Virus record (IMG/VR): IMGVR_UViG_2850761752_000005
Strand: one strand, 5' to 3'
From: a virus
Lineage: Duplodnaviria; Heunggongvirae; Uroviricota; Caudoviricetes
DNA: 33,816 nt
Part shown: positions 259 through 23,833 of the stretch, in pieces
How the letters are laid out: each line of letters starts with the position of its first letter
Numbering within the stretch: the stretch's first letter is position 1
Notes under the pieces: generated by a model
Seen by the model: only the letters and a program-made list of their open reading frames with translations
The model's database searches: none
Told to the model about the DNA's origin: nothing
Position numbers and translations under genes: made by a program

Positions 259-268
259 TCGTCTGACA

Positions 269-2732: not shown

Positions 2733-2779
2733 CCCATCAACCCCGCCATTTCGGTTCAAGGTTGATGGGTTTTTTGTTG
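2733..2779 (+). terminator. Putative rho-independent terminator downstream of ybjL, at the host/prophage junction
   Basis: Perfect 10-bp inverted repeat CCCATCAACC ... GGTTGATGGG followed by TTTTTTGTTG. Confidence 0.45.
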
Positions 2780-2855
2780 TCTGAAATTTATGCCTTTTAA
2801 AATCATGATGTTAGAAGCACTGTTTTTTAACGATGGCGACAAAATGGCGGCAGCG

Positions 2856-3074: not shown

Positions 3075-3164
3075 TTTTCGAGTTCTCCCCATTTTTGCTA
3101 AATTCACAATAATGATACCGCATTATTCCATTTTGCAAACTTAAAAGTTCTCCATTGCGAAGAA

Positions 3165-4265
3165 TCATTCCATTTCGAAATCATCAATCCTCACTTCAAG
3201 CTCCAGACTGGTCGTAAAACCGTTATCCGGGCTGACAGTATGCGTCAGAGTCGTAATGGTCCATTCCGCATCATCTAGCGGCTGTTTAAAGCCACTGACC
3301 TTCACAGGCATTTCTGTGTAGAGATCTGCCCGCCCTTCCGCCAGTTGTAGCGAGAATGATGCAACGCCGCGTTGCAGGCGTTCCCACTGCATTTTCGCTG
3401 CCCGTTCGGCGTTGCTCCGGTTGGCATAAGTGCGATTAAGTACCAGCACGTTTTCATCCGTACCCACCAGGTAATCGCCCTGCTTCGCTTCCGGCTCTTT
3501 CTTCTGCTTCTTAGTCCTGCGCTTACGCTTCACCGTGGTGCTTTCTTTCTTCGCGGGTTCGCGGGTATGCAACCAGCTGGCAATGACGCCCGTGTAAGCT
3601 CCGCGATCTGCCAGGGTAAAGCGGTGACTGTCGCCGTCCTTGCGTGTGATAGTGATCACCGGTAGTGGTTTACCGCTGGCGCTTTTACCCTGCCCCTGCC
3701 GGATGAATAACAGATTGCCATTTTTCACCGACGCAATAGCACCGTACTGGCGCGCCAGCCGCATCAAAAAACTGCCGTCACTCTCATTAGTCTGGTCTAT
3801 ATGCTCCACGAGTTTATCCGACAAGTCTTCACCCAATGCCATCTTCAGTTTGTGCCGCGCAGCTATTTCCTTCACCACTTCCCCAACGGTGGTCTTGTGC
3901 CACGACTTTTCACGGCGGGTATTCAGCGTTTCACGAAAATCAGCACTTCGCGCCCGGATAGTCAGGCGATCCGGTGCGCCAGTGTGTTCAATCTCGTCCA
4001 CCGTGAATGCCCCTTTCGGGAAAAGCGGCTGTCCCTTCCAGCCCAGCGCCAGCGTAATGACAGCCCCACGGCGCGGCAGCACGATTTTTCCATCGGCGTC
4101 GTCCAGCTCCAGATCAAGCTGGTCCGCTTCAAAGCCCCGGTTATCCGTCAGCGTCAGCCCCATCAGGCGGTTGTCCAGCACAGTGGTGATATCCCTGCCT
4201 TCAATACTGATGCTGAATGCCGGAGTTTTGTTGCCTTTGTTAAGCAGTTCAGAGCTGAAATTCAC
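3165..4265 (-). CDS. D: P2 gpD-like tail protein (late control D)
   Basis: 366-aa ORF; GTG start overlaps the U stop (GTGA); position after U and before ogr as in P2. Confidence 0.8.
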   Translation of the reverse strand: MNFSSELLNKGNKTPAFSISIEGRDITTVLDNRLMGLTLTDNRGFEADQLDLELDDADGKIVLPRRGAVITLALGWKGQPLFPKGAFTVDEIEHTGAPDRLTIRARSADFRETLNTRREKSWHKTTVGEVVKEIAARHKLKMALGEDLSDKLVEHIDQTNESDGSFLMRLARQYGAIASVKNGNLLFIRQGQGKSASGKPLPVITITRKDGDSHRFTLADRGAYTGVIASWLHTREPAKKESTTVKRKRRTKKQKKEPEAKQGDYLVGTDENVLVLNRTYANRSNAERAAKMQWERLQRGVASFSLQLAEGRADLYTEMPVKVSGFKQPLDDAEWTITTLTHTVSPDNGFTTSLELEVRIDDFEME

Positions 4266-4747
4266 GACAGCAGCCCTCCCACCGTTTTACTGATATCGCT
4301 TAAGGCAGATGTTGCCGTTCCCTGCAGATTATTCAGTTGCGCACTGAGATCACCGAACATATCGGACAGGGATTCATCCACGCGTTTTAGCGACAGGGTG
4401 AACTCAATCCGGCGCGGCATACCGTCGCGGAAAAACTCCGTTTTAGTCTGATTCAGTCCCTCAATCACATACATGCCGTAAATCGTGCCGCTGCCTTCAA
4501 TCAGGGGCCATGCTTTTCCCTGTTCTGCCATCTGCTCCAGAGCCAGCAACGACAGCCTGCCGCCCGTTACCTCCGGCATAAGAACACCAGAAAGCGTCAG
4601 CATGTCGTTGTCCGGTCCCAGAAACTGCGTTGACGGGCGTCGGTTTACCCGGCTGTTTGCCGCATGTCGCCAGCTGCGTTGATACTGCAGCTCCTGATAC
4701 GGCACGGTGCGCAGCATAAACACGTACAATCCCAGCACCATCATCAT
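4262..4747 (-). CDS. U: P2 gpU-like tail protein
   Basis: 161-aa ORF, similar in size to P2 U (159 aa); ATG overlaps the T stop. Confidence 0.8.
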   Translation of the reverse strand: MMMVLGLYVFMLRTVPYQELQYQRSWRHAANSRVNRRPSTQFLGPDNDMLTLSGVLMPEVTGGRLSLLALEQMAEQGKAWPLIEGSGTIYGMYVIEGLNQTKTEFFRDGMPRRIEFTLSLKRVDESLSDMFGDLSAQLNNLQGTATSALSDISKTVGGLLS

Positions 4748-7700
4748 GCGTCGTATCCCCCCTGATCGCTGTAGTTACTCCTGGCTTTTGCCTTCAGCCT
4801 GCGTTCACGTTCATCAAGCTGGCGGGCCACCTCCCGCGCAATATCCTGCGCACTTTGTCCTGGCTGCGTTTGAATGATGATCTGCATCGGTGCCTCAATC
4901 CGTTGAACGGGCGGCACAGTGGCTGCACGACTCACCATCGCTTCACCGCCTTTCGCGGGAAGTGCCAAAGGGTGCAACGGTGGAAGCTCTGCTGGCGTAG
5001 CAGCAACACCCATCATTCCGGCAACAACGGCAGCCAGTGCAGCTGTATTTCTCCGGCTGGTCACATTTGCCGGGCCGTTAACAATTTCCGGCCCGTTTTC
5101 ACCGACGATGCCAAACTGCCCGCGCGGGATATACCCGCCGCTGTCATACATCCCCGCAAAGCCATATCCCCATGACGGAAAACCACCCGATGGCATCATC
5201 ACTTTACCGTCTGCATTCACCGTCGCAGGTTGCTGACGCGTCACGCTTTCCGGCAGTTTCGCCTTTGCGGCCTCTTTACTGACAATGCCAAGTTTCTCCA
5301 GCAACCAGGAAACGCCGGATTTCAGGGAGTCCAGCGGATGCATGACCATATTCAGCCCTTCCGCCAGAGCCTCCCCGAATCGTCGCCCCATTGCCGCTGC
5401 ACTCTGCAGTTCGGCAGAGGTCGACTTAACGGGCGTCAGCAGATCAGTAAACCAGCCCCACAGCGCCTGTACTTTGTCGCCAATCCACTGGAACACAGGC
5501 TTAAGCGGTTCGAACGCGGCACTGACAGGACCTGCCGCCGCTTTGAATCCTTCCACCACGCCACCGAGAAATGCGGTGATGGGCTGCCAGTATTTCCAGA
5601 CAACCAGCGCCACACCCGCCAGTGCAGTAACCACAAGACCTATCAGACTGAGCAGAGCACCTAACAGACCAGAGACGGCATACAGGGCAACGCGCAGCAT
5701 CGCCAGTGGACCGGATGCGAGCATACGCAGCACCGTGCCTGTGGCAGCCAGTCCGCCGCGTAGTACCGCCAGTGGATTCATAAACATCACAGCAACCGCA
5801 CGTAAACCGGATAATCCAGACCGCAAAAGTGCAACCGGCGCACCTGCTACAGTTTTCAGGACATTTCCCGTCAGTGATGCCGTGCGGCGCAAAGACGACA
5901 ACGGCGCAGTAAGTAAACCTGCAGCGTTGCCCGATGAAGCAAGCCCGCGTCGCAGCAGTGCCAGTGGTGCGCCAGCCAGCCAGGACAACGCGTTGCTGGT
6001 TCGGGTTACTGTTGCCGTAACGGAAGGTAACGTTTTGATACCCAGCACAGAGAATCCCAGACGGATGACTGCCAGCGGCCCCAGCACTGCAGCCAGCGCC
6101 ACCGCTAAGGTGCCGAGGCCCACGGTAACGGCAGCTACCACAGCGGCTACTTTCATCAGAGTGCCCGTCAGTTCCGGGTTAGCTTCCACCCAGCGACGCA
6201 ACGCCCCCGTGACGCTTTTCACCGTGTACAGAATATCCATCAGCGGCTGGCGCAGCGTTTCCCCCAGGCTGCTGAAGGTGTTCTGTGCTCCGGTTTTGAC
6301 CAGCAACCACTGAGCAGAAAGTGAATCCTTGTTGATGTCGGATTCTTTCTGCATGGAACCGAGCGCATCATTGCCCGCAGTCAGTTTTAACTGGCGCTGA
6401 AGTTCCGGCAGGTTGTTTGCCAGTTTCGCTGCGTCATCGCCAAACTCTTTACCAAACAACATGGTCATGGCAGACAGGCGCTTATCCTGTGGCAGCGCAT
6501 TCACCTTCTCCAGCACCCGCTGGATAGTTCCCATCGCATCCTTCGTCATCTGCTTTTCAATCACTTCTGGATTGAGTTTCAGCAGATTCATCCCTTCAAA
6601 GAAACTCTTGCTTTGCATGGTGGCAATGGACAATTCACGCACCATCGCGTTTGCTGCACTGGCTGCAACCTCAGGCGCAGCGCCGAGTGTCAGGAAGGTG
6701 GAACCCAGCGCCGCCGCTTTACGATAATCCAGACGGTCAGCCACACCGCCCAGGCGTTGCATGACATCAATGATGTCCGCCCCTTTCGACATGGCGTTAT
6801 CATCCAGATAGTTCAGCGCATCACCGAGCTGCTCAATATTGCGGGTAGGGATTTTGTAGAGCTGGGCGATTTTCCCCAGACTTTCTGACAGTTCATCCGC
6901 TGGCAGTTCAAAGGCTGTTGCCGCCTTTGCCGCCGTGCTGGCGAAGGCCAGCAGGTCACGTTTCTGGTCTTCCCAGCTGTCGTCAGGGTTTGCGACGTTC
7001 ATGCGCGCACCACCTTCAACCAGTGCGGCGAAGTCCACAGCACCGTTTTCCATCGGCAACTGTTCGCTGGCAGCCTTGATGGCACCCTGCATTTCGTAAA
7101 AACGCGCAGTGCGGTTGCCATTATCGTCACGCAGACCATTGACCTGCTTTGCCACACCTTTCATGGCATCTTCCATGCTGGTATAGCTTTTTACTGCCGC
7201 CATCACTGGTGCGCCCATTGCCAGCCCTGCAGCCGTGGTGGTGGCTCCGGCACCTGCAATACGATCCCTTACCTCAAGACGCCTGGCGTAAGCCCCCGGG
7301 CGGCGTGCATTTTTCGCTGTTGCTCCCCGACACGTCGTAACCTCGCTTCCTGCTCAGAAAGCTGCCTGTTATAACGCATCGTTTCACGGGTAATGCGGGC
7401 CGTCGCACTGGCGCCATCATTAGCTGAAATACCAGCACGATAAAGTTCTGCACGCACAAGCGCCGTCTGCTGCTGCAGCTTTTTCTGGCGTTCTTCTAGG
7501 CGCTGAACAGCCAGCCGTTGACGGCCCAGAGCAACAACCTGACGTTGCGAAGGCGGCCCCATCGCTCCCAGTTCCTGACTGAGCAAATTTGCACGCTGGC
7601 GGGCATAGTTCAGCCTGTCGCCTAATTTCTGATTTTCTGCCTGCAGCTTTCGGAAGCTGTCCAGACTGCTCCCGGCCTGATCAAGCTGCTTTATTGCATC

Positions 7701-7820
7701 GCGGGATTTTTTGACAGCAGCAGCCAGTTCTCTTGAACTGGCCTGCGCGGATCGAAATGGGCGGGTGAGTTTGTCAACCGCATTAAGAATCACCTGCAGA
7801 CGCAGGTTATTGTCACTCAT
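4744..7820 (-). CDS. T: tail tape measure protein (gpT-like), interrupted by an apparent single-base frameshift
   Basis: Two ORFs: 7269..7820 (183 aa, coiled-coil-rich; its ATG overlaps the E' stop) and 4744..7218 (824 aa, Gly/Ala/Leu-rich repeats). Their frames differ by one and both are open across about 7269..7355. One extra base in the C5/G run at 7293..7301 would fuse them into about 1025 aa. Confidence 0.7.
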
Positions 7821-8249
7821 GGCTGGCCCCGCTTCTCTGAATCGCTTTATCCCGCCATTCCAGCACTTCGGTCAGCGGCATAACGTCAGTAACGGATGGC
7901 GGCCAGTGAAAGATGGTGGCGATATCAGCCACCAGATCGTCAACCGTCAGGCTGTCGGTAAACCGGCAAGCACCGACTTCTTCAACAAAAAAGTGACAAC
8001 CTCAACCGACATGGCAGTGAGATCTGCCGGGTCCATCTCTGCAATTTCCTGTGCAGTCAGTGCCGGACTGGAGATGCGGGGGATCACGGTCATCATCGCG
8101 TTCACATCCATATCCATAATGGCCTGCAGGCGTGTGCCGCGCAGCGCACCGGACTGCGGTTTACGCAACACAATTTCGGTAATTTCTGTTTTACCGCGCA
8201 TGATGGGAGTATCCAGTTGAATGGTCTTTTCAGTCTGCTTATCGCTCAT
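7813..8249 (-). CDS. E+E' extended chaperone made by programmed -1 frameshift
   Basis: Minus-strand heptamer T TTT TTG (plus 7986..7992) near the E 3' end; the -1 frame stays open for about 59 codons to a TGA at 7813..7815 that overlaps the T start. Predicted length of about 146 aa is close to P2 E+E' (142 aa). Confidence 0.6.
7947..8249 (-). CDS. E: tail assembly chaperone gpE-like
   Basis: 100-aa ORF between FII and T; ends just after a T TTT TTG slippery heptamer. Confidence 0.75.
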   Translation of the reverse strand: MSDKQTEKTIQLDTPIMRGKTEITEIVLRKPQSGALRGTRLQAIMDMDVNAMMTVIPRISSPALTAQEIAEMDPADLTAMSVEVVTFLLKKSVLAGLPTA

Positions 8250-8303
8250 TTTGTTGTCCTGTAAATTAGGTTCTGGCGCGGCATTCCGCGCCGTTCAGAT
8301 ACA

Positions 8304-8819
8304 TCAGAGGCCGAGGGCGTTGCGGTGCGCTTCCATCAGGTCCACACCGTCCACAATTTCCACCATGTTGATCAGGTCCACTTCATAGAGCACCTCACCA
8401 TTGATGGTCAGCTTCGCGTAGCTGTTGGTACTGGTCACTTTGGTAGTGTTGCTTTCGCCCGTCTTCCACTCGCCGGAATCTACTTCTTTGTGACGTCCAC
8501 GCACCACAAGCTCCACGGCCTGCACTTCCCCGGTATCATCACGCTGAATAGAGCCGGTAAAGCGCAGCTGGATGCCATCCACCGTGGCTTTGCCCATCTG
8601 CTTAAACAGCAGCAGTTCAGTACCACCAATGGAAAATTCTGTATCCAGTGCACTGTCATCCAGTCCCAGATCCACATCCACCGCTCCGGGCATACCGCCG
8701 CCGCGATACTTCTCATATTTGCGGGTGAATTTCGGCAGCGTCAGCGACTCAACGATCCCCTGCCAGTTGTTCCCGTCGTTAAACAGGTTCAGGTGTTTTA
8801 ATTTGCGTGGTAAAGCCAT
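8304..8819 (-). CDS. FII: tail tube protein gpFII-like
   Basis: 171-aa ORF (P2 FII is 172 aa); follows the sheath gene. Confidence 0.85.
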   Translation of the reverse strand: MALPRKLKHLNLFNDGNNWQGIVESLTLPKFTRKYEKYRGGGMPGAVDVDLGLDDSALDTEFSIGGTELLLFKQMGKATVDGIQLRFTGSIQRDDTGEVQAVELVVRGRHKEVDSGEWKTGESNTTKVTSTNSYAKLTINGEVLYEVDLINMVEIVDGVDLMEAHRNALGL

Positions 8820-8828
8820 GTTGTCCCC

Positions 8829-10001
8829 TTACGCGCTGACCTGGCTGGAGAAATTCACCAGGTACTGATCGGTGATGCGCTGACGCAGCATCAGGTTTTC
8901 AAGTGGCGGCACTGGCGTGTAGTCGTAATCGATGGTGAGTTTCCCGGCTTTCAGCGTGTCTTTATCGTTCACCGACTCGTCCAGCCAGCAATCACCACCA
9001 ATGAGATAGCCCTGACTGACCAGGCTACGCATTTTGGCGCGGATACCTTCGATAATGTCGCGGGCCAGCGACGGGTTCAGCGGTTTGTCCACCGCCCACA
9101 TGTGCGCTTCTGCCATCGTGTCCATCAGCACCTGCGCCGTGCGGGTGTAGTTTTCGAAGGCAAAGAGCGGATCATCGCTCAGACAGCGGGAACCCCAGAA
9201 GCGGAAACCGTCTTTGCGGATAAGCGTGGTGATATCGTTCTGGTTAAGCAGACCTGCATCGGTTGCCGGGTCCTGCAGATCCCAGAACACATCAGCAGAA
9301 ATTCCGGTGACACCGTTCACGCCCACGTTGGACAGGCTTTTGTGCCATCCGGTCTGCTCATCAATTTTAGCGCGCAGACCGAGCGCACGGGCGGTGGCAT
9401 AAGCCGTTGCTTCGGCATTCAGCACCGTGTCCCAGCCAGTAAAGTCGGGCCAGATCAGCATTCCTTCACGCTGACTGAAGTTTTCACGGTAAGTGATTGC
9501 TTCCTGCACCGTCTTGCAACCATACGCTGACAGGTAAGCAAATCCACGCAGGCTTTGCGCCACGCTCAGCAACTCAGTAGCTACCGCCTTCGTGTCGTGA
9601 CCTGGCACGCCGAGAATGCGCGGTTTAACGCCGAGCTGTGACTGGGCAGATAACAGGGCTTTCATACCTGTTTTTTTACCCTCGGCGGTCACTGCGCCAA
9701 TGATATTGGTTGTGGTTTCTTCTTCCGTTTCACCCTGCGGCACACGCACAACAACGGTCACGGGTTTTGCCTGGTCAGCGATGGCATCCAGCGAACGGGC
9801 CAGCGTGCCAGACTCACCCGCTTTACCGCTGGCGGTCAGCACATCAGTGATCAGCACAGGTTTATTAAGAGGAAACATTTTTGCATCGGCATCATCGCCC
9901 GTGCAGACCATACCCACGATGGCGGTGCTCACCGTGGTAATGGATCGGGTGCCTTCGTTGACTTCAACAACGCGCACCCCGTGGTGGTAATCCTGAGCCA
10001 T
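8829..10001 (-). CDS. FI: contractile tail sheath protein gpFI-like
   Basis: 390-aa ORF (P2 FI is 396 aa); first gene of the FI-FII-E-T-U-D operon. Confidence 0.85.
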
Positions 10002-10077
10002 AGTGGCGAACCTCCTGATTGGATTAGGCTTCGCCCTATGTTGAAGTGATTGTGCCTGACAAACAGCTAAGCGCAGT

Positions 10078-10095
10078 TGTGTCGTTATTCACACA
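10078..10095 (-). promoter_or_regulatory. Candidate Ogr-dependent late promoter element (TGT-N12-ACA) for the FI operon
   Basis: TGTGTCGTTATTCACACA, centred about 85 nt upstream of the FI ATG, as expected for a -55 activator site plus leader. Confidence 0.4.
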
Positions 10096-10143
10096 AAATG
10101 ACGGTATTTGTCCGCTTACAGGAAAAATCAAAATAATACTGAC

Positions 10144-10710
10144 TCAGGGCGATTCATTGCTCTCATTCGCCGGAAATTTTCTATAAATGGTAGAAACGCC
10201 CACATCAAAAATCAGTGCAATACGCTGTCTTGATTCTCCGGCCTCGAGTAAACGTCCAATCTGTGCCCACTGTTCGGTGGTCAACTTAGGACGGCGTCCA
10301 CCTACTCTGCCTTTGGCACGAGCTGCAGCCAGCCCTGCTCTGGTACGTTCAACTATCAGTTCACGTTCCATTTCAGCCAGAGCCCCCATGACGTGAAAAA
10401 AGAAACGGCCCATTGGGGTACTGGTATCAATACTGTCAGTCAGGCTTCGGAAATTCACACCACGCTGGCGCAACTCTTCTATCAGCGTAACAAGATGCCG
10501 CATACTGCGTCCCAGTCTGTCCAGCTTCCAGACAACCAGCGTGTCTCCTGCCGATAGTGTCCTGAGCAGTTTTTTAAGCCCCGGTCTGTCGGGCTTAGTG
10601 CCACTGATTTTATCCTCAAAAATCCGCTCACATCCCGCGCAGTTCAGTGCATTACGTTGCAAATCGGTGTTCTGGTCATTTGTTGACACGCGTACATAGC
10701 CAATAAGCAT
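10144..10710 (-). CDS. serine DNA invertase (Hin/Gin/Pin/Cin family)
   Basis: 188 aa from ATG at 10710; GYVRVSTNDQ catalytic-serine motif at the N-terminus and a C-terminal HTH; the ORF track extends upstream of this start. Confidence 0.85.
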   Translation of the reverse strand: MLIGYVRVSTNDQNTDLQRNALNCAGCERIFEDKISGTKPDRPGLKKLLRTLSAGDTLVVWKLDRLGRSMRHLVTLIEELRQRGVNFRSLTDSIDTSTPMGRFFFHVMGALAEMERELIVERTRAGLAAARAKGRVGGRRPKLTTEQWAQIGRLLEAGESRQRIALIFDVGVSTIYRKFPANESNESP

Positions 10711-10721
10711 GATCAATCCCC

Positions 10722-10747
10722 TGAATAAAAACCGGGGATGATGCCAG
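10722..10747. other. Candidate hix/gix-like inversion crossover site
   Basis: Half-site TGAATAAAAACC resembles the TTATCAAAAACC consensus; lies 12 bp from the invertase start, exactly where the tail-fibre segment reading frame opens (10729). Confidence 0.4.
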
Positions 10748-11127
10748 TTAGCCATTATCTCTGCATTTTCTTAAACGTTGGTTTGGGAGAATTATCTCTG
10801 GCTGGCACTGCATCGGGTGTCATTGGCCTGAATGGGTATGTAACGATTCCGTTAATTATTTCAGGTTCCCGGAGAACACTGATTATTCAGTGGGGGCAGG
10901 CGAGATTTGGTGGGTCTGGTGGTGAAGATGCAGGATATCTTAATGATTTTCCTTTTGCCTTTCCGTCAGCATGTTATGGGATGATAGTTAGTCATGTGGG
11001 GCATACACCTTCAGGCGCAGGAATCCTGTCGGCTTCTGCAATTACATCAAATCAGTTCCGCGGTTTTTCAAGCATAGCGACTGCTGCAAATGCTGTATTA
11101 GGTCGTTATATCGCTATAGGGGTTTAA
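10738..11127 (+). CDS. orphan tail-fibre C-terminal variable segment (Hv'-like), inverted relative to the late operon
   Basis: 129-aa Gly/Ser-rich ORF; frame is open from 10729 at the crossover site; immediately followed by a tail-fibre assembly gene. Confidence 0.5.
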   Translation: MMPVSHYLCIFLNVGLGELSLAGTASGVIGLNGYVTIPLIISGSRRTLIIQWGQARFGGSGGEDAGYLNDFPFAFPSACYGMIVSHVGHTPSGAGILSASAITSNQFRGFSSIATAANAVLGRYIAIGV

Positions 11128-11128
11128 T

Positions 11129-11566
11129 ATGTTTTATAGTCCATCTTTAAACATTTTTGTGAATCCTGCGCTTAAGGATGATTACATTAATGCAAATTCA
11201 TGGCCAGATGATGCTCTGGCTGTCAGTGATGATGTTTATAATGAATTTGCAATCAATACGCCCCCAGATGACAAAATTCGTGTTGCAGGAAAAAATGGAT
11301 TACCCACATGGGCACTAATACCTCCACCATCATATGAAGAACTTATTCAACAGGCAGAATCAGAAAGGCAATTATTGCTTAATCAGGCCAACGAATACAT
11401 GAACAGTAAACAATGGCCCGGTAAAGCCGCTATTGGTCGTCTGAAAGGTGAGGAACTGGCGCAATATAATTTGTGGCTGGATTATCTGGACGCACTGGAA
11501 CTGATTGATACCTCCAGTGCTCCAGATATTGAATGGCCTACGCCTCCGGCAGTTCAGGCCAGATGA
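11129..11566 (+). CDS. tail fibre assembly protein (Tfa/gpG-like)
   Basis: 145-aa ORF ending in the DIEWPTPP motif typical of Tfa proteins. Confidence 0.7.
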   Translation: MFYSPSLNIFVNPALKDDYINANSWPDDALAVSDDVYNEFAINTPPDDKIRVAGKNGLPTWALIPPPSYEELIQQAESERQLLLNQANEYMNSKQWPGKAAIGRLKGEELAQYNLWLDYLDALELIDTSSAPDIEWPTPPAVQAR

Positions 11567-11652
11567 CATCCGGCGCGGTGCTGGTATCTGTTGCCGCCAC
11601 CGCGTCAATGTAATCCAACACGGCGTTAAGTCGGGTGGGTAATGACTCCAAC

Positions 11653-12156
11653 TTACTGATAGTGTTTTATGTTCAGATAATGCCCGATGACCTTGTCATG
11701 CAGCTCCACCGATTTTGAGAACGACAGTGACTTCCGTCCCAGCCTTGCCAGATGTTGTCTCAGATTCAGATTATGTCGCTCAATGCGCTGAGTGTAACGC
11801 TTGCTGATAACGTGCAGCTTTCCCTTCAGGCGTGATTCATACAGCGGCCAGCCATCCGTCATCCATACCACGACCTCAAAGGCCGACAGCAGGCTCAGAA
11901 GACGCTCCAGTGTGGCCAGAGTGCGTTCACCGAAGACGTGCGCCACAACCGTCCTCCGTATCCTGTCATACGCGTAAAACAGCCAGCGCTGACGTGATTT
12001 AGCACCGACGTAGCCCCACTGTTCGTCCATTTCAGCGCAGACAATCACATCACTGCCCGGTTGTATGCGCGAGGTTACCGACTGCGGCCTGAGTTTTTTA
12101 AGTGACGTAAAACCGTGTTGAGGCCAACGCCCATAATGCGTGCACTGGCGCGACAT
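11653..12156 (-). CDS. insB: IS1 InsB
   Basis: 167-aa ORF matching recalled InsB; overlaps the insA 3' end. Confidence 0.95.
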
Positions 12157-12350
12157 CCGACGCCATTCATGGCCATATCAATGATTTTCTGGTGCGTACC
12201 GGGCTGAGAGGCGGTGTAAGTGAACTGTAGTTGCCATGTTTTACGGCAATGAGAGCAGAGATAGCGCTGATGTCCGGCAGTGCTTTTGCCGTTACGCACC
12301 ACGCCTTCAGTAGCGGAGCAGGAAGGACATCTGATGGAAATGGAAGCCAC
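12075..12350 (-). CDS. insA: IS1 InsA
   Basis: 91-aa ORF matching recalled InsA. Confidence 0.95.
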
Positions 12351-12428
12351 GCAAGCACCTTAAAATCACCATCATACACTAAATCAGTAAGTTGGCAGCA
12401 TTACCACTCAATTGAAAACAAATAAAAA

Positions 12429-12872
12429 TCAAGTTAGGTTTTTAATGAACATTCTTTCAATTAACTCAATAGATTGGACATTAAAACCTAATAACTGCCT
12501 TTTCGCATAGATGGTATAAATACCTTTTCGACTGACGCGATCACTCAAGCCGTAATGGTGAATACGGGCAATGCGCTGCACCCTACCTTCAAACTGTACG
12601 CTGGCAGAATCGGCGCTGGCTGCAGTTTTCAGGTATTTTGTGGTGCGCAGCTTTGTAAACATCTGACGTTTGATGCACCCCTTTTTGCTGCGTGCTGTTA
12701 CCCTGCGCGGCTCATAACTGCTGCCATCAGGATTGCGCTGCATCCTGATGTTCTGCTGCTGTGTCCGGCGCAGTTCCTGCGCCAGCTGGCGCATCATGCG
12801 GCTTCTTGCGGCTGGCTCCAGATTCGCCAATAATGCACTCAGCCAGTCGTCCACCTTCTGCAATTCAGCCAC
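12429..12872 (-). CDS. S: tail completion protein gpS-like
   Basis: 147-aa ORF (P2 S is 150 aa); GTG start overlaps the R stop; last late gene before the IS1 junction. Confidence 0.7.
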   Translation of the reverse strand: MAELQKVDDWLSALLANLEPAARSRMMRQLAQELRRTQQQNIRMQRNPDGSSYEPRRVTARSKKGCIKRQMFTKLRTTKYLKTAASADSASVQFEGRVQRIARIHHYGLSDRVSRKGIYTIYAKRQLLGFNVQSIELIERMFIKNLT

Positions 12873-13296
12873 GTTTCACCGTCCACATTTCTTCAGGTTC
12901 ATCAGGTTCCGCTACCGCTTCAACGTTCGACACACTGCCGTCAGTGCTGACCAGCACACGCTCCGTCAGTTGCAGGTTAAGGCTGATATCACAGACATCG
13001 TTGCGCAGAATATCCACCTCAAAGGTGAATAGCTTTTCCCGTAACGCCGGGTTATTGATCGCATCGGGCTGGTTATCCCGCAGCCACAGCAAAACCGGGG
13101 CCATCAGCAGATTCTGGTCGCCGCTGAAATCTTCAATCACCACGTTCAGGGTGTAGCGGTACTCCCATGACATGGAGCTAGCCCCGGAGGCAACCAGCGA
13201 ACCGTTATCCACAAACAGATGCAGTTTGTCCGGGTTATTACGGACATAAGGCACTGCTTTATTGAGGGCGTGGCGCAGGGATTGTGGTTTGTTCAC
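12865..13296 (-). CDS. R: tail completion protein gpR-like
   Basis: GTG start at 13296 preceded by AGGAG; the ORF track alternative is a TTG at 13317. Confidence 0.7.
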   Translation of the reverse strand: MNKPQSLRHALNKAVPYVRNNPDKLHLFVDNGSLVASGASSMSWEYRYTLNVVIEDFSGDQNLLMAPVLLWLRDNQPDAINNPALREKLFTFEVDILRNDVCDISLNLQLTERVLVSTDGSVSNVEAVAEPDEPEEMWTVKRG

Positions 13297-13549
13297 TGTT
13301 TCGCTCCTGACACGCAATAATCATGTCCACTTTGTCTGCACAGACCGCCCAGGCGGCCTCCGTTTCATCCAGCAACGCATTCAGATCACCGTTAGTGCGC
13401 GGCGCTGCCTGCTCCAGCCGACACGGCGTCACTCGCGGACAACCACTGACGGTAAGCTGCACCTCCGGTGAGTGCCGGACGTTCCCGCAGCCGGATAATG
13501 TCAGCAGGCAAAGGAGTATCAGCCCAGCGACGTAAATCCTCGTTCTCAC
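13259..13549 (-). CDS. lysC: LysC/Rz1-like outer-membrane spanin lipoprotein
   Basis: 96-aa ORF embedded out of frame in lysB; signal peptide with lipobox LTLSGC; GTG start. Confidence 0.65.
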   Translation of the reverse strand: MRTRIYVAGLILLCLLTLSGCGNVRHSPEVQLTVSGCPRVTPCRLEQAAPRTNGDLNALLDETEAAWAVCADKVDMIIACQERNSEQTTIPAPRPQ

Positions 13550-13820
13550 GTTTCAGTTCCTCAATCCGGCGTTGTCGTTGTCTCAGCAGTACACTGGTCT
13601 GTTCTGCTTCGGCATAGAGCCGCGCCTGCTCCCGGTTATTGGTTTCAGTCAGAATGGACAGGCTGATAAGCTGGCTGTTGCTCTTTGCCAGTGCCTGGCT
13701 TTTGCTCTGCAGCTCGTCTGCCTGCGTGCTGATGGTCTGGCTGGCATCAGCCAGCCGCCACGTCTGCCAGCCCAGCGCCGCCAATAATAACGCCAGCACA
13801 ACCAGCAGCAACCGGTTCAT
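13392..13820 (-). CDS. lysB: LysB/Rz-like inner-membrane spanin
   Basis: 142-aa ORF with N-terminal TM segment and coiled-coil body; ATG overlaps the lysA stop. Confidence 0.75.
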   Translation of the reverse strand: MNRLLLVVLALLLAALGWQTWRLADASQTISTQADELQSKSQALAKSNSQLISLSILTETNNREQARLYAEAEQTSVLLRQRQRRIEELKRENEDLRRWADTPLPADIIRLRERPALTGGAAYRQWLSASDAVSAGAGSAAH

Positions 13821-14194
13821 GCGGCTACCTGTTGCGCCATCTGATTATGGGTGATCCAGAAGGCAATAACGGTCAGCAGATAAAAGACCAGGGTAATGGC
13901 CCACCCCGTCCAGGCGAGACTGACGACAATCAGCAATCGTATCACCCAGCTGATAAATACGTTTTCTTTTCGGGTAATTGTCTTCAGTAAAGATGCCCTC
14001 AACTCCTGCCAGAGCGGGCCATTCTTAATTAACGAAGCCAGTGCTACCGGAATTACCGCCCATGTCAGTAAACAGGCTACCCAAACGCCGGACGCTGCCA
14101 GTACCGGAAAAATCCCCTGCGGATACACCATTGCTGCGATTAACAGCGCCATCCATAACATCAGAAACAGCCCGCTGATTAATTTCTTTTTCAT
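13817..14194 (-). CDS. lysA: LysA-like lysis timing membrane protein
   Basis: 125 aa from ATG at 14194 (MKKK...), 1 nt after the K stop; several TM segments; the ORF track extends to a GTG at 14266. Confidence 0.65.
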   Translation of the reverse strand: MKKKLISGLFLMLWMALLIAAMVYPQGIFPVLAASGVWVACLLTWAVIPVALASLIKNGPLWQELRASLLKTITRKENVFISWVIRLLIVVSLAWTGWAITLVFYLLTVIAFWITHNQMAQQVAA

Positions 14195-14195
14195 T

Positions 14196-14708
14196 TCAGT
14201 TTGCTCCCTGTAAACACCAGGCCATCTCCCGCGCACGGCGGTTATCCAGCCCCTGATTAAAAACACCTTTCACATAAACCCAGCGCGGCAACTGTCGGCA
14301 CGCATCCGCCCAGCGCCGCTGATTGAGCAATTTCACCAGCGTGGAACTGCAGGCATTGCCCGTACCCACGTTGAAGGCAAACGACACCGCAGCGTCATAC
14401 ACCTTCTGCGGCGGCTGTTGCTTCACACACTTTTCCAGCGCCCGCTCCACACGCAGCACGTTGGAGATCAGCCCTTCTGCTGCCTGTCGCTCCGTAATGG
14501 TTTTGCCGGGAATGACGCCCGACGTATTACCAATACCGTCGGTCCAGACACCCGCGCTGCACTGATACGGCTGCAGACGACAACCTTCGTAATCGGCAAT
14601 CAGTTTCAGTCCCTCCACGGAGGTGTGAAGCTGCTGAAAACCCGGCAGCGTGGCAGCAATAGCCAGCACGGCCCCGACAAGGCAGCGTTTAACGATTGAT
14701 GGATTCAT
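14196..14708 (-). CDS. K: endolysin (gpK-like lysozyme) with N-terminal hydrophobic segment
   Basis: 170-aa ORF (P2 K is 165 aa); position between holin and lysA. Confidence 0.8.
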   Translation of the reverse strand: MNPSIVKRCLVGAVLAIAATLPGFQQLHTSVEGLKLIADYEGCRLQPYQCSAGVWTDGIGNTSGVIPGKTITERQAAEGLISNVLRVERALEKCVKQQPPQKVYDAAVSFAFNVGTGNACSSTLVKLLNQRRWADACRQLPRWVYVKGVFNQGLDNRRAREMAWCLQGAN

Positions 14709-14904
14709 AGTCCTCCCGCGAGATCTGCCCGTCGCGCAGAAGCTGGTAGGCTTTGTGTTTGTAGTACCAGTTGATAGCCAGCATCAGCACACCAATCATC
14801 AGGCCGCCCAGCGTTGAGGCATCCTTGATGGACAAATCGCCCAGCCAGGCCAGCACGACGGCGATGCAATACGTGATAAAGGCGCTGATTCGCTCAAGCG
14901 TCAT
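14689..14904 (-). CDS. Y: holin (gpY-like)
   Basis: 71-aa ORF with two hydrophobic segments and a charged C-terminus, directly upstream of the endolysin. Confidence 0.7.
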   Translation of the reverse strand: MTLERISAFITYCIAVVLAWLGDLSIKDASTLGGLMIGVLMLAINWYYKHKAYQLLRDGQISREDYESINR

Positions 14905-14907
14905 AAT

Positions 14908-15111
14908 TCAGTCCCATAGCTGGACGGTCTGCACGGTGGTGGTGGTCGGAATGTCCGGCAGCTCCACCTGCAGCCCGTGAGGTAAAAAGGGGCCGTATTC
15001 GGCAAGCCCCGGATTTGCCTTCAGTACCTGCTCCGTGACACCCTGCGTGCGCCCGTAATGACGCCAGCAAAGCGCGTCCACCGTGTCATACTGATGCGCA
15101 CGCACTTTCAT
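14908..15111 (-). CDS. X: tail protein gpX-like
   Basis: 67-aa ORF, same length as P2 X; ATG overlaps the L stop. Confidence 0.8.
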   Translation of the reverse strand: MKVRAHQYDTVDALCWRHYGRTQGVTEQVLKANPGLAEYGPFLPHGLQVELPDIPTTTTVQTVQLWD

Positions 15112-15638
15112 CAGATAAGCTCCACTGTGCAGTGCGGCGCGTCCTGCACCCGGCTGATGGCCCAGCGGGCGTCACGCCACAAATCACCGCTTGCTTCCGC
15201 CAGTTCTTCGCCCCGCTTCGCACCGGATGCCGTGGCGTCATAGTCCTGGAAACGTTCGTTGAGCATGGCGCGAGCCCAGCAGTAAACCGCGTTGAAATAG
15301 TGCTGAATGCGCTCACTTTTCCCGTCCAGCTGTTCCGCCGGAACCTCAGCCAGCGACGCATACCCCAGCATCTGCTGGCGTCTGCGAAACTCATACAGCT
15401 CTGCGTTAACCTCCGAAATTGCCGACAGTGCAACCTGCTTTAAACGCGGCTGCGTCACCGTGCCGTCAGTGCGCATGACACTGCGAAACTCCGACAGGTC
15501 CACATCAGGCCAGAACGGCGTATTTCTAATGATTTCCGCCTGTTCCGGTGCCTGTTCTGGCGCAACAAACTTCATGCTGCTTTCTCCTGAAATAAAGGGC
15601 GGTGGACGGGGTTTTGATGTGGCTGTGCCTTTCGCCAC
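15111..15638 (-). CDS. L: head completion protein gpL-like
   Basis: 175 aa from GTG at 15638 (P2 L is 169 aa); an internal ATG at 15575 with a strong AGGAGA site is an alternative start. Confidence 0.75.
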   Translation of the reverse strand: MAKGTATSKPRPPPFISGESSMKFVAPEQAPEQAEIIRNTPFWPDVDLSEFRSVMRTDGTVTQPRLKQVALSAISEVNAELYEFRRRQQMLGYASLAEVPAEQLDGKSERIQHYFNAVYCWARAMLNERFQDYDATASGAKRGEELAEASGDLWRDARWAISRVQDAPHCTVELI

Positions 15639-15670
15639 CCCGTGCCGCCCGTGCGCGGGGGCACGTTCTG

Positions 15671-16321
15671 TCAGCGGCTGTCATTGCGCAGTCTGCGCTC
15701 CAGCTGCTGTTTGTCTTTTTTCACGCCACAGCGGGGATCGAGCTGTAACGCATGGTTGAGATGATTAAGGGCGGAAGCCGGATTGCTTTCACTCAGGACC
15801 GCGCCAATCGCTTTATGCAGACGTGCCCGTGACTGGTCCGGCATATCCAGACCGTCTGTCAGCTCCAGCGTCTGCAGCAACAGATCGGCATCAAAGCCGG
15901 TGGCGGCAAGCATTGCGCTCTGCGCTGCATCTGCCATTTCCTCTGTCAGCACGGTCTGCACGTTGCGGTTGCCCAGCGGCATCACCCATCCATGACGCAG
16001 GGCATGACGCCCGATCTCCAGCGCCCCGGCATAATCTCCGGCATCAATGCGCCACAACATCACGTACATCAGCACGTCATCCTGTTGAGCGCCTCCGGCA
16101 GCCAGGACACCCTCCGCCCAGGCGGCGTACTTCGGCAGCAGCTCCACTTTGATTTCCGCTTTTTTGACCGTGGACTGAACGCCCTTGAGACGGCGGCGGT
16201 CTTCCGCCAGTTGCAGCAGCATCAGGTCATAGCCCGATGCGTGGCGAACACTGCCACCCTCACGGACGGCCTGTTCAGCCTGAACGCGCAGGCGATGCTG
16301 CCGTGCGGGACTCAGGCTCAT
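15671..16321 (-). CDS. M: terminase small (endonuclease) subunit gpM-like
   Basis: 216-aa ORF between N and L. Confidence 0.8.
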   Translation of the reverse strand: MSLSPARQHRLRVQAEQAVREGGSVRHASGYDLMLLQLAEDRRRLKGVQSTVKKAEIKVELLPKYAAWAEGVLAAGGAQQDDVLMYVMLWRIDAGDYAGALEIGRHALRHGWVMPLGNRNVQTVLTEEMADAAQSAMLAATGFDADLLLQTLELTDGLDMPDQSRARLHKAIGAVLSESNPASALNHLNHALQLDPRCGVKKDKQQLERRLRNDSR

Positions 16322-16324
16322 GGA

Positions 16325-17383
16325 TTACGCTCCGGTTTCGGCTGCGGCGGCGCTGAAATCACTAATCTGGATGTTTTCCACCAGTGCGGCGCAGCGGTAG
16401 TCCTCAACCACATAGGCTTCGTTAACGGATTCAAAGTTTTCAATCCGGTCACGTTTCGGGTTGTCGATAACTGAACGGCGGCGGGTGTCTTCCTGCCAGT
16501 AGATGGACAGGTTATCCAGACGGGTGATCAGCAGCGCATTCGGCGGGAAGAACGGCGCACGCACGGCCTGCAGGCCACCCATGCGTTTCTGACTGATGAT
16601 CATATCGGCAGCCAGTTTTTCACTGTTTTCCTGCTCTTTGTTGACCAGCGGGAAATACTTGTCAGACAGCAGTTCACGACCGCAAATCACCACCAGATCG
16701 TCATCGTCCTGGTAGACCACGTCGATAAGCTCATTGACGGCATCCATCACCACGGCGTCCAGGTTGGCATATTCGCCACCTTTCCCGACTTTCACTGCGC
16801 CCGGTGTGGTTTCACCGCCCGTGGTGGTGCTGCCCATGACGTGATCCGGTGCATCCTCACGGATTTTCTGCAGCCAGCCTTTATTCACATCCTGCAGCAG
16901 CGGGTTTTCGCTACGGTTGGAGGTTTTCGCACGCTTCACGCCATTAAAGCCGATCATGATGCGGTCCAGTGCCTGACGTTTCACGATGGCGTCACGGATA
17001 CGCACCTGAAAATCCTGAAACTTCGCCCACAGGTCCAGCTTCGCGTAGGTCAGCACCGTGTCAAAGTTGGTCTGCTCGCATTTATATTCCACATCGACCA
17101 TCAGCGTCGGATCGACAGGTTCACGCTCTTTCGCAGTGGTATCAGTGGTTCCGGCAATGGTGCTGCCAACTCCCAACCCCAGCAGCTGACCGGACTGCTC
17201 AGTCACTGGCGTGACGTTAATCAGAGTCAGGAAAGCGGCGGACTGCTGGATCTGGTCTTCCAGCGTCTGCTGCACGGACGGCTCTACGGTGAACTTGCTG
17301 GACAGTTCTTCAACTGCCACACCGTTCAGACGCGCCAGTTGCTGCAGGTAAGCGTTAAAAGCAAAGCGGGTATTCTTCTTCAT
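16325..17383 (-). CDS. N: major capsid protein gpN-like
   Basis: 352-aa ORF (P2 N is 357 aa). Confidence 0.85.
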   Translation of the reverse strand: MKKNTRFAFNAYLQQLARLNGVAVEELSSKFTVEPSVQQTLEDQIQQSAAFLTLINVTPVTEQSGQLLGLGVGSTIAGTTDTTAKEREPVDPTLMVDVEYKCEQTNFDTVLTYAKLDLWAKFQDFQVRIRDAIVKRQALDRIMIGFNGVKRAKTSNRSENPLLQDVNKGWLQKIREDAPDHVMGSTTTGGETTPGAVKVGKGGEYANLDAVVMDAVNELIDVVYQDDDDLVVICGRELLSDKYFPLVNKEQENSEKLAADMIISQKRMGGLQAVRAPFFPPNALLITRLDNLSIYWQEDTRRRSVIDNPKRDRIENFESVNEAYVVEDYRCAALVENIQISDFSAAAAETGA

Positions 17384-17399
17384 CAGGTTTTGTGCTCCA

Positions 17400-18233
17400 T
17401 CAGCAATTGGTCAGAGTGTCAGCGGGGGCGTTACCGCCTGTTGCACGCTGGCGGTAGTCCTGGCGGCTGTCTTCATGACTCAGCTTGTCCACCAGTTCGT
17501 TAAAGGCGGTTTGCTGTGCCTGCAGGGCAGTCTCCAGCTCAGACAGGCGTTCTTCCTGCTCAGACAGGGATTTTTCGGTGCGTGCGCTCAGGTTCTGCTG
17601 CTCAGTGGCGACCAGCTCCACGGCCTTATGCACATCAGAGAACCGGGCGTCATCGGACTGCTCTTTTTTGGTAAACAGCGCCGTGACGCGGGCAAACAGG
17701 GACGGTTTGTCGTCCTGGACTTCTTCCAGTTCGATCACCGTTTCCTCTGCGGCGGTAAAGAGATTGGCGGGATTCTGCTTGCGGTTTGCCAGCGGGTTAT
17801 GGGCTGCACTGGCGCTGAATGTCAGCATTTCAGTGCCCAGACTGGCAGGGTCATCAGTGGCAGCCAGGCCGACTAGGTAGGCTTTGCCCGTATCAGCGAA
17901 CTTCGGGCTGACTTCCATAAAGGTGAATAATTTCTGGCCTTTTTTCACCAGTTCCACCAGGGACTCCGTTGGCTCAACGTCAGCATACAGCGCCATCTTG
18001 CCTGCCAGCGGACCTTCCGTGATTTCTTCAGCAAACAGCGCCGTCACCTTGCCGTAGCGGTTAAAGGTGCTGTCCGGCAGATAAGACTTGATGTGCTCAA
18101 GGTTAATCAGCGCGGTATACACCGCCGGGTTATAGCTGGCTGCCATCTGTTCCAGCCATTCACGCTGGATTTCGCGTCCGTCGGTGGTGGCACCTTCCAC
18201 CCCGATGCGAAAACGCTTTGCTTTCACTGTCAT
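17400..18233 (-). CDS. O: capsid scaffold protein gpO-like
   Basis: 277-aa acidic, coiled-coil-rich ORF; first gene of the O operon, divergent from P. Confidence 0.85.
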   Translation of the reverse strand: MTVKAKRFRIGVEGATTDGREIQREWLEQMAASYNPAVYTALINLEHIKSYLPDSTFNRYGKVTALFAEEITEGPLAGKMALYADVEPTESLVELVKKGQKLFTFMEVSPKFADTGKAYLVGLAATDDPASLGTEMLTFSASAAHNPLANRKQNPANLFTAAEETVIELEEVQDDKPSLFARVTALFTKKEQSDDARFSDVHKAVELVATEQQNLSARTEKSLSEQEERLSELETALQAQQTAFNELVDKLSHEDSRQDYRQRATGGNAPADTLTNC

Positions 18234-18311
18234 GAGCCGTGCTCCGTTAGAAAAAACTTACTGGAGCCTTATGGTTGCGGTGATAGGGGCAGTGAAACAA
18301 TGCGCGGTATT

Positions 18312-18329
18312 TGTACCGACAACCACACA
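18312..18329. promoter_or_regulatory. Candidate Ogr-dependent late promoter element (TGT-N12-ACA) in the P/O divergent region
   Basis: TGTACCGACAACCACACA; centre is about 87 nt upstream of the O ATG and 56 nt upstream of the P ATG. Confidence 0.4.
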
Positions 18330-18375
18330 AACCGCAGGCGGGGAAAGCCTTCATTCAAGGCTGTAGGTTTGTGCC

Positions 18376-20142
18376 ATGAACACCACACTGACACCCGCAG
18401 ATCTCGATCCCCGTCGGCAGGCCATGCTGCTGTACTTTCAGGGATACCGCGTAGCCCGCATTGCTGAAATGCTGGGCGAGAAAGTTGCAACCGTTCACAG
18501 CTGGAAAAAACGCGACAAGTGGGGTGACTATGGGCCTCTGGATCAGATGCAGCTCACCACCGCCGCACGCTACTGCCAGCTCATCATGAAGGAGCACAAA
18601 GAAGGGAAAGATTTCAAAGAGATTGACCTGCTGGCGCGCCAGTCTGAGCGCCACGCGCGGATCGGCAAGTTTAACAATGGCGGCAACGAAGCCGACTTAA
18701 ACCCTAACGTCGCCAACCGCAACAAAGGCCCACGCCGTCAGCCTGAAAAGAATGTTTTCACCGATGACCAGATTGAGAAGCTGGAAAAAATTTTCCATTC
18801 CTCCATGTTCAACTACCAGCGCCACTGGTGGGAAGCCGGAAAAACCAACCGCATCCGCAACCTGCTGAAGTCACGCCAGATCGGCGCGACCTTCTATTTT
18901 GCCCGTGAAGCCCTGATTGACGCCCTGCTTACCGGACGTAACCAGATTTTCCTTTCTGCCAGTAAGGCACAGGCCCACGTCTTCAAACAGTACATCATCG
19001 ACTTTGCCAAAGAAGTGGAGGTGGAGCTGAAAGGCGATCCGATGGTGCTTCCCAACGGGGCCACACTGTATTTCCTCGGCACCAATGCCCGCACTGCCCA
19101 GAGTTATCACGGTAACCTGTATCTGGATGAATATTTCTGGATACCGAAATTTCAGGAGCTACGCAAAGTGGCTTCCGGTATGGCTATTCACAAGAAATGG
19201 CGGCAGACCTATTTTTCCACACCATCCAGTCTGACCCACAGTGCTTATCCGTTCTGGTCCGGTGCGCTGTTCAACCGTGGGCGCAACAAAGCTGACAAGG
19301 TGGACATCGACCTGTCCCACAGCAATCTGGCCCCCGGCCGGCTGTGCGCAGACGGGCAATACCGCCAGATAGTCACCGTGGAAGATGCGGTGCGCGGCGC
19401 CTGTAACCTGTTCGACCTTGACCAGTTGCGCATGGAGTACAGCCCTGACGAATACCAGAACCTGCTGATGTGCGAGTTCGTGGACGATCTCGCGTCCGTG
19501 TTCCCGCTCAGCGAATTGCAGGCGTGCATGGTGGACAGCTGGGAAGTCTGGACCGACTTTCATGCACTGGCCCTGCGCCCGTTTGGCTGGCGCGAAGTGT
19601 GGATCGGTTATGACCCGGCAAAAGGTACGCAGAACGGCGACAGCGCCGGATGCGTGGTGGTGGCACCGCCAGCCGTGCCAGGCGGTAAGTTCCGCATTCT
19701 TGAGCGTCACCAGTGGCGCGGAATGGACTTTCGCGCCCAGGCTGACGCCATCAAAAAACTGACTGAACAGTACAACGTGACCTATATCGGCATCGACTCA
19801 ACCGGCGTTGGTCACGGGGTTTACGAGAACGTGAAAGCGTTTTTTCCTGCCGTCCGGGAGTTTGTCTACAACCCCAACGTTAAAAACGCCCTGGTACTCA
19901 AGGCCTACGACATTATCAGCCACCGCCGTCTTGAGTTTGACGCCGGGCACACCGACATTGCGCAGTCATTCATGGCAATCCGTCGCGCCACCACCGCCAG
20001 CGGCAACCGCCCGACCTATGAAGCCAGCCGCAGCGAAGAAGCCAGCCATGCCGATCTGGCCTGGGCAACAATGCACGCACTGTTTAACGAACCGCTGCAG
20101 GGCGAGTCCGCCAATACCAGCAATATTGTGGAGATTTTTTGA
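18376..20142 (+). CDS. P: terminase large (ATPase) subunit gpP-like
   Basis: 588-aa ORF (P2 P is 590 aa); stop overlaps the Q start (ATGA). Confidence 0.9.
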   Translation: MNTTLTPADLDPRRQAMLLYFQGYRVARIAEMLGEKVATVHSWKKRDKWGDYGPLDQMQLTTAARYCQLIMKEHKEGKDFKEIDLLARQSERHARIGKFNNGGNEADLNPNVANRNKGPRRQPEKNVFTDDQIEKLEKIFHSSMFNYQRHWWEAGKTNRIRNLLKSRQIGATFYFAREALIDALLTGRNQIFLSASKAQAHVFKQYIIDFAKEVEVELKGDPMVLPNGATLYFLGTNARTAQSYHGNLYLDEYFWIPKFQELRKVASGMAIHKKWRQTYFSTPSSLTHSAYPFWSGALFNRGRNKADKVDIDLSHSNLAPGRLCADGQYRQIVTVEDAVRGACNLFDLDQLRMEYSPDEYQNLLMCEFVDDLASVFPLSELQACMVDSWEVWTDFHALALRPFGWREVWIGYDPAKGTQNGDSAGCVVVAPPAVPGGKFRILERHQWRGMDFRAQADAIKKLTEQYNVTYIGIDSTGVGHGVYENVKAFFPAVREFVYNPNVKNALVLKAYDIISHRRLEFDAGHTDIAQSFMAIRRATTASGNRPTYEASRSEEASHADLAWATMHALFNEPLQGESANTSNIVEIF

Positions 20143-23791: not shown

Positions 23792-23833
23792 TATTACCCT
23801 CTCACTTCATTAGTGATGATTTATTTTGGAATT

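Follow-up and report, generated by a model that had tools for sequence, protein, structure and literature searches.

A stump of a Pin-type tail-fibre switch, probably orphaned by an IS1-linked deletion, in a P2-like prophage of Shigella boydii

The virus record IMGVR_UViG_2850761752_000005 of IMG/VR, a stretch of 33,816 nt that was analysed over its whole length and is called the window below, is a P2-like prophage of Shigella boydii lying in the chromosome between ybjL and rcdA. The late genes follow the order of the P2-like phages (Peduoviridae), whose hallmark Pfam families it has (gpR, gpS, FI, FII, E, T, U, D and ogr; the capsid genes O, N, M and L; P and Q), and it is collinear with an annotated P2-like prophage, NZ_CP049845.1, which served as comparator. 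The prophage is defective, with V, W, J, I, H and G missing and several genes frameshifted; the late operon runs from gpS directly to the sheath gene, and an IS1 sits at the gap left by V, W, J, I and H. At this gap lie a serine DNA invertase gene, a single crossover site, a silent C-terminal segment of a tail-fibre gene, a tail-fibre assembly (Tfa) gene and the end of a second one (Table 1). We consider it very probable that these features are what is left of a Pin-type (Din-family) host-range switch for tail fibres, orphaned by an IS1 deletion. The cassette stands between the fibre genes and the sheath gene, and a model's earlier reading of the same DNA, made from the letters alone (the sequence-only reading), had rightly placed it in the G-to-FI interval, the Z/fun slot of P2: P2 itself keeps fun(Z) in the same accessory slot, which is bounded by the V-operon terminator and the F promoter.

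The minus-strand open reading frame (ORF) at 10144–10755 matches the Pfam families Resolvase (3.7e-53) and HTH_7, as expected of the serine invertase that had been claimed. The true start is most likely the ATG at 10710, from which a 188-aa protein begins MLIGYVRVST..., because RefSeq annotates the same start for the identical gene of the comparator and because the alignments with Gin and PinE open at residue 1; a 203-aa reading is thus too long. The sequence aligns over residues 1–184 with those of the Gin crystal structures 3UJ3 and 4M6F (E ~1e-92) and shares with Gin the YVRVST motif carrying Ser9 and the DRLGR motif, MLIGYVRVSTNDQ and KLDRLGRS being identical; residue 114 is the wild-type Met, where the 3UJ3 sequence has Val. 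Alignment with the Mu gin, P1 cin and e14 pin regions, which had been suggested as a check, gives identities of 74.6% to Mu Gin, 79% to P1 Cin and 85% to e14 PinE. The earlier label 'Hin/Gin-type' therefore holds for the family, but the closest of these relatives is e14 Pin, not Hin or Gin. The invertase is also 98.4% identical, as protein, to that of the P2-like phage KP12 and 95% identical, as DNA, to that of Escherichia phage 500465-1. Among NCBIfam models it has sub-threshold matches only, with no equivalog above the cut-off. The protein nonetheless carries what defines a Din invertase, namely a catalytic domain with the YxRVS serine nucleophile, a C-terminal helix-turn-helix and an identity to characterised members far above that to resolvases.

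On the opposite strand, the ORF at 10738–11127 encodes the tail-fibre C-terminal domain Gp53-like_C (1.3e-12), and it is followed by a Caudo_TAP tail-fibre assembly protein (8.5e-33). The tip is 37% identical to StfP of e14, and the C-terminal half of the 145-aa Tfa is 51% identical to TfaP of the same element; NCBIfam holds no family for either. Both the 129-aa and the 145-aa ORF are thus fibre and Tfa homologues, as the sequence-only reading had proposed, and the tip is further confirmed by the in-frame fusion to H described below. The silent tip has no start of its own, and the ATG at 10738 is no real start: the frame is open from 10729, just after a TAA at 10726–10728, and runs through the crossover site to 11127. 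The earlier statement that it opens at the crossover site is therefore approximately right, the frame running through the site, with its exact opening at 10729. Downstream, and overlapping the end of the 145-aa Tfa gene, the minus strand of 11538–11637 translates as TRLNAVLDYIDAVAATDTSTAPDVIWPELPEA followed by a stop, which is how the 200-aa Tfa of the intact relative ends. The constant part of the fibre gene and the second site are absent, as had been noted, but the alternative half is not wholly so, since the last 32 codons and the stop of its tfa remain.

Read on the minus strand, the crossover site is TTCTCCCAAACC AA CGTTTAAGAAAA, with the core dinucleotide at 10778–10779; it has the two imperfect 12-bp half-sites, the 2-bp core (AA or GA) and the position adjacent to the invertase gene that mark Din sites. 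In the comparator the sole inverted repeat of the right geometry is a 26-bp pair, TTTTCTTAAACGTTGGTTTGGGAGAA adjoining the invertase gene and TTCTCCCAAACCAAGGTATGTGAGAA inside H, 1,828 nt apart, and the TTTTCTTAAACGTTGGTTTGGGAGAA arm maps to window 10766–10791. The pixR site of e14, TTCTCCCAAACC AA CGTTTATGAAAA, differs from the window site by one base (25/26, by comparison with the K-12 sequence), and the match is also found in a published table of Din-family sites (PMC3241671). Where a complete switch has two inverted flanking sites the window has one; the partner, present in intact relatives, falls within 5,545 bp that are deleted here. Elsewhere the 33.8-kb window contains neither a further copy of the two sites or of the left half-site nor a match to a degenerate Din pattern, in agreement with the claim that the invertase has no partner site there.

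The sequence-only reading had put a hix/gix-like half-site at 10722–10733. This could not be sustained. The 12-mer (TGAATAAAAACC) has 3/12 mismatches to the hix half-site, a level reached 56 times in the window against ~30 expected by chance; it lies outside every inverted repeat of the intact relative, and its position is within the conserved 55-bp leader of the invertase gene, ~40 bp from the true site, so that it was rejected as a chance-level match. Alignment of this leader with those of e14, Mu and KP12 reveals the conserved blocks TGGCAT.AT...TTTTA...GG.G before the ATG. A weak terminator-like hairpin (10749–10730, minus strand) followed by TTTATTC also lies in the leader, overlapping the same 12-mer; the stretch 10730–10749 is conserved with e14, Mu and KP12, and the hairpin may be part of the control of the invertase gene.

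The comparator, from E. coli UPEC-245U/190328 (NZ_CP049845.1, locus L002), was found by megablast of complete E. coli genomes. It occupies the same chromosomal site between ybjL and rcdA and is 100% identical to the window over 9900–11638, and its invertase copy shows no difference; in a blastn comparison of the whole window, 1–11638 corresponds to L002 112–11750 (99.88%) and 12406–27723 to L002 17296–32617 (99.78%). Its genes follow the order sheath, recombinase (188 aa), gp53-like ORF (plus strand), tfa (plus), tfa (minus, 200 aa), H (minus, 513 aa), I, J, W, V, DUF5677, S and R. The native H of 513 aa has a Collar-type tip and is paired with the 200-aa Tfa. When the stretch between the two core dinucleotides was reverse-complemented as a simulated inversion, an in-frame H of 465 aa resulted, joined as ...LLTYLGLGE/LSLAGTASGV..., with the Gp53-like tip and the 145-aa Tfa. 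The intact relative thus has the arrangement of the Mu G segment, a constant 5' part placed in frame with alternative 3' parts that each have an assembly gene, and the window keeps only one 3' part with its Tfa.

The inverted orientation is found in nature. Intact copies with an identical invertase are common in E. coli. Among the genomes retrieved with the invertase, three (L016, L017 and L019) are arranged as in the comparator (H being called in two pieces in L017), and the cassette in JAKLOE010000001.1 (L021) is flipped: a 465-aa H with the Gp53-like_C tip is followed by the 145-aa Tfa, and the 200-aa Tfa with a Collar fragment lies silent beside the invertase. The C-terminus of this H (111 residues and stop, 112/112) and its Tfa (146/146 including the stop) are identical to those encoded in the window. 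A and C, the bases immediately beside the two sites, are swapped, as would be predicted because crossover inside the sites exchanges them. Taken together, sequence comparison provides good indirect evidence that the cassette inverts in intact copies, and that of the window is frozen with the Gp53-like half silent. The view that the window holds the inverted, silent half of a Mu G-segment-like switch is therefore supported by the intact prophage (99.8–100% identical), by the simulated inversion and by the naturally flipped copy. One further locus (L020, CP148297.1, 2682–5567) has the identical invertase and proximal site adjoining a different partial cassette, with a site identical to pixL of e14 (TTCTCCCAAACCAAGGTTTTCGAGAG), a Mu gp48-like gene and an IS3-family transposase, and represents another rearranged switch.

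The IS1 has the expected length of 768 bp, terminal inverted repeats GGTAATGACTCCAACTTACTGAT and GGTAATGCTGCCAACTTACTGAT (~23 bp expected) and Pfam matches to InsA and InsB. Its flanks, AGTCGGGTG and ACTCAATTG, show no target-site duplication, and it stands in place of 5,545 bp of the comparator, in which UPEC-245U carries the greater part of the alternative tfa along with H, I, J, W, V and a cargo gene. At the right-hand end, window 12406 corresponds to L002 17296, inside a DUF5677 gene annotated at L002 16296–17315. In the intact prophage this gene stands between V and S and is encoded on the other strand; it is accessory-looking and has no PADLOC match. The 32 codons of tfa on one side and the 20 nt of the DUF5677 gene on the other are scars of a deletion here rather than of an insertion in the comparator. 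The IS1-linked truncation, which the sequence-only reading did not mention, explains the orphan state.

Relatives were retrieved by exact-sequence look-up of the window gpS and of the invertase. With gpS, the arrangement S–IS1–tfa–tip–invertase–sheath was found in several assemblies. CP026731.1 (L007) is 100% identical to window 6429–18872 (12,444 bp) and includes both IS1 junctions; it is the chromosome of S. boydii ATCC 8700 (PMC9430107). Both junctions are likewise present in two S. flexneri 6 sequences, AKNB01000239.1 (L008) and CP162080.1 (L006), the latter from S. flexneri serotype 6 strain 703427 (PMC11708030), and the invertase is 188 aa in 3/3 Shigella copies retrieved through the neighbouring gpS gene. 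A search for the exact left IS1 junction in a genome collection with one genome per species gave no match. S. flexneri 6 strain 604193 (CP162059, L014) retains the same left junction, but the right side (3305/3306) abuts window 19220 inside the terminase gene P, with a further 6.8-kb loss of S, R and the lysis and head genes. One constant and one variable end with nested losses are the signature of IS1-promoted adjacent deletion. Moreover, in E. coli G5 the equivalent tfa gene has been hit independently by a simple IS1 insertion without a deletion, which makes such an insertion a plausible first step. An extra IS3-family element interrupts the tube gene in CP162059.

These observations suggest how the locus may have arisen. 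In the intact element, the invertase would recombine a pair of 26-bp sites in inverted orientation, the first just upstream of the invertase gene and the second within H, and thereby flip ~1.9 kb, so that the constant part of H is joined either to the Collar-type tip with the 200-aa Tfa or to the Gp53-like tip with the 145-aa Tfa. An IS1 would then have inserted into the 200-aa tfa while the Gp53-like half was silent, and an IS1-promoted adjacent deletion would subsequently have removed 5.5 kb comprising the rest of this tfa, H with the second site, I, J, W, V and the cargo gene; that insertion preceded deletion is our inference. The locus now comprises one site, the intact gene of the invertase, and a promoterless tip with its chaperone gene, the tip having neither a start codon nor a constant part to join. 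Since one site only is present, the locus is a remnant and not a working member of its family; the remnant switch can neither invert nor make a fibre, and there is no baseplate. A known kind of system has thus decayed by a known process.

Table 1. Features at and around the remnant switch (window coordinates)
Feature	Position	Strand	Basis
Tail tube gene	8304–8819	minus	
Tail sheath gene (FI), neighbour on the invertase side	8829–10001	minus	Pfam Phage_sheath_1, Phage_sheath_1C, Gp18_domIII_N
Pin/Gin-family (Din) serine DNA invertase gene, 188 aa, apparently intact	10144–10710	minus	Pfam Resolvase and HTH_7
Conserved leader, crossover site to invertase start	10711–10765	minus	Alignment with e14, Mu and phage KP12
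Single surviving 26-bp pix-like crossover site	10766–10791	minus	25/26 to pixR
Silent variable C-terminal segment of tail-fibre gene H, 111 codons and stop	10792–11127	plus	Gp53-like_C
Tail-fibre assembly (Tfa/U'-like) gene, 145 aa, belonging with the silent tip	11129–11566	plus	Caudo_TAP
Remnant of the alternative 200-aa Tfa gene, last 32 codons and stop, cut by IS1	11538–11637	minus	
IS1, 768 bp, insA/insB (insB/insA ORFs 11653–12350)	11638–12405	minus	Pfam InsA/InsB
Last 20 nt of the DUF5677 cargo gene; right-hand deletion end point	12406–12425	plus	
P2 gpS-like tail completion gene, first late gene past the deletion	12429–12872	minus	Pfam Phage_tail_S (5.4e-37)
gpR	12865–13317	minus	

Several points weigh against this account. 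A partner site lying beyond the 33.8-kb window, which is conceivable, would weaken the orphan reading. As to the deletion, recombination between two IS1 copies would leave an identical scar, indistinguishable from that of an adjacent deletion. Other points concern the invertase, which may still be expressed and active and presumably depends on Fis and an enhancer. In a crude scan for Fis motifs, gin and pinE each gave paired candidates 46–50 bp apart (centres 101 and 147/151); both equivalent positions in the window fell below the filter, the second narrowly, in a stretch that is 86% identical to pinE. An equally crude scan of 10000–11700 for a sigma-70-like promoter upstream of the invertase (minus strand) found none above shuffled expectation, a result that is tempered because the leader is conserved with Mu and e14.

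The alternative that deserves most attention is that the invertase is still in use, its single site being paired with a Din site in the chromosome or the enzyme acting in trans on the segment of another prophage. The gene is intact, identical to that of working prophages and of full length in all three Shigella copies, while several larger genes of the same prophage are frameshifted. Tominaga is said to have reported in 1991, for pinB, that Din invertases cross-complement, and Kutsukake reportedly described in 2006 that Fin of Fels-2 flips the Salmonella H segment, both of which would favour action in trans. However, the gene is only 567 bp long and the prophage differs from an intact one by ~0.2%, so that its intactness needs no selection, and there is no second site within 33.8 kb. 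The published bix sites of the S. boydii/sonnei PinB system carry GA as their core where the window site carries AA (PMC3241671). Mismatched cores give no stable inversion in the Din family, and such sites would therefore not recombine productively with an AA-core site. We therefore regard continued use as unlikely. A more specific version, in which the orphan invertase is kept functional in S. boydii and S. flexneri 6, acting in trans on Din or quasi-sites, with the lone site serving as one end of rare large inversions or the enzyme controlling the switch of another prophage, appears rather improbable.

Two other explanations address the identity of the enzyme and the reality of the gap. The missing half might be an artefact of assembly, produced by a collapse or a false join at a repeated IS1. 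Shigella genomes contain very many copies of IS1, at which assemblies often break or are joined wrongly, and many of the contigs that carry gpS end at this IS1. Both junctions are, however, identical in the three independent assemblies described above, two of them full-length chromosomes, and the left one recurs in a third chromosome (L014); the tfa and DUF5677 remnants are, in addition, what a real deletion leaves. An artefact is therefore very improbable. That the recombinase is instead of the resolvase or transposon type, unrelated to the fibre genes, could be suspected from the generic Pfam assignment to Resolvase and HTH_7 and from the missing NCBIfam equivalog. This reading is scarcely tenable in view of the high identity to PinE, Gin and Cin and of the bit scores, 310.8 against Gin but 120.8 against gamma-delta resolvase, with Tn3 resolvase likewise far weaker. 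Nor does the setting fit it: a pixR-like site lies 55 bp upstream, in the layout of e14 and Mu, and both orientations of the cassette occur in relatives with an identical protein. A match to a resolvase with another target, named at the outset as a finding that would overturn the invertase claim, was thus not what the comparison gave. The stump of a Pin-type switch, cut down by an IS1-linked deletion, remains the explanation that we favour.

Among known systems, the P-segment with PinE of E. coli K-12 e14, reportedly described by Plasterk and van de Putte in 1985, is the one that the locus resembles in most respects, and Fels-2, with Fin, is an example of a P2-like prophage with an invertible fibre cassette. 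The invertase and the proximal site are close to those of e14, with the same AA core, and the order of invertase, ~55-bp leader, site, silent tip, tfa and convergent tfa is the same, within a defective prophage in both cases; the alternative Tfa is named TfaE-like in RefSeq matches. The e14 element itself, a lambdoid remnant, has both of its sites and is still able to invert, whereas the copy described here belongs to a P2-like prophage, has lost its partner site and fibre gene, and has a tip that is only distantly related to StfP. Inversion of the fibre segment, in e14 as in P2-like prophages, has been demonstrated by sequencing (PMC4272514). The P2-like invertible cassettes of that study (enteropathogenic E. 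coli E2348/69) belong to the same phage family and occupy the same slot, but unlike the one-site stump they are complete and were shown to invert (PMC4272514). With the G segment and Gin of Mu and the C segment and Cin of P1, the locus shares a design of one constant 5' part, two 3' parts each with an assembly gene, and an invertase just outside the segment; Mu differs in the GA core of gix (AA in the window; PMC3241671), in the length of its segment (3 kb versus ~1.9 kb) and in phage type, and the window copy is truncated. PinB of S. boydii was considered as an identity for the enzyme and rejected: the bix sites of S. boydii/sonnei PinB have a GA core and are gix-like (23/26 and 25/26 to gix; PMC3241671), whereas the window site is pix-like with AA. 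The decay itself, with a single IS1 lacking a target-site duplication and with a constant and a variable junction, is like IS1-promoted adjacent deletion in Shigella generally and shows nothing unusual.

For annotation, we propose the name orphan Pin-family invertase, and the pipeline-called 'gp53-like domain-containing protein' should be read as a promoterless 3' cassette and not as a gene. Beyond this the locus has little importance, being a clean and well-dated case of IS1 stripping tail genes from a Shigella prophage and leaving a recombinase without a substrate. Were the enzyme still to act in trans, it might contribute to the structural variation of Shigella genomes.

Other parts of the prophage also show decay. 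The tape measure gene (4744–7820, minus strand) is split into ORFs of 824 and 183 aa and, compared with the intact relative, shows T for A at 7242 and lacks one base at 7293; it is split in S. boydii ATCC 8700 too and unsplit, at 1025 aa, in the S. flexneri 6 copies. The portal gene Q (20139–21086, plus strand) is divided into ORFs of 199 and 104 aa, with one base substituted at 20736 and one lost at 21033 by comparison with the intact prophage. In the early region, an IS911-like IS3-family element (27724–28969) replaces 1,835 bp (L002 32618–34452), a loss spanning from the end of a Dam methylase gene into a gene for a CII-family regulator. A 2,081-bp insert (30312–32392) made up of an IS1 and an IS3-family element separates the repressor region from int, its flanks overlapping by 9 bp (L002 35786–35794), consistent with a target-site duplication. 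The integrase gene (32425–33441) appears disrupted: set against the intact relative, it has one base substituted at 33203 and one missing at 33270, and its ORF ends at 33204. The slot of tin/old in P2 (21278–23791, minus strand) is filled by a two-gene cargo encoding an HNH protein (293 aa) and an AAA ATPase, a pair that matches the PADLOC candidate defence system PDC-M01, with an A component that is PtuA/Septu-like; owing to a 1-bp deletion at 22459, the ATPase is 451 aa long instead of 549.

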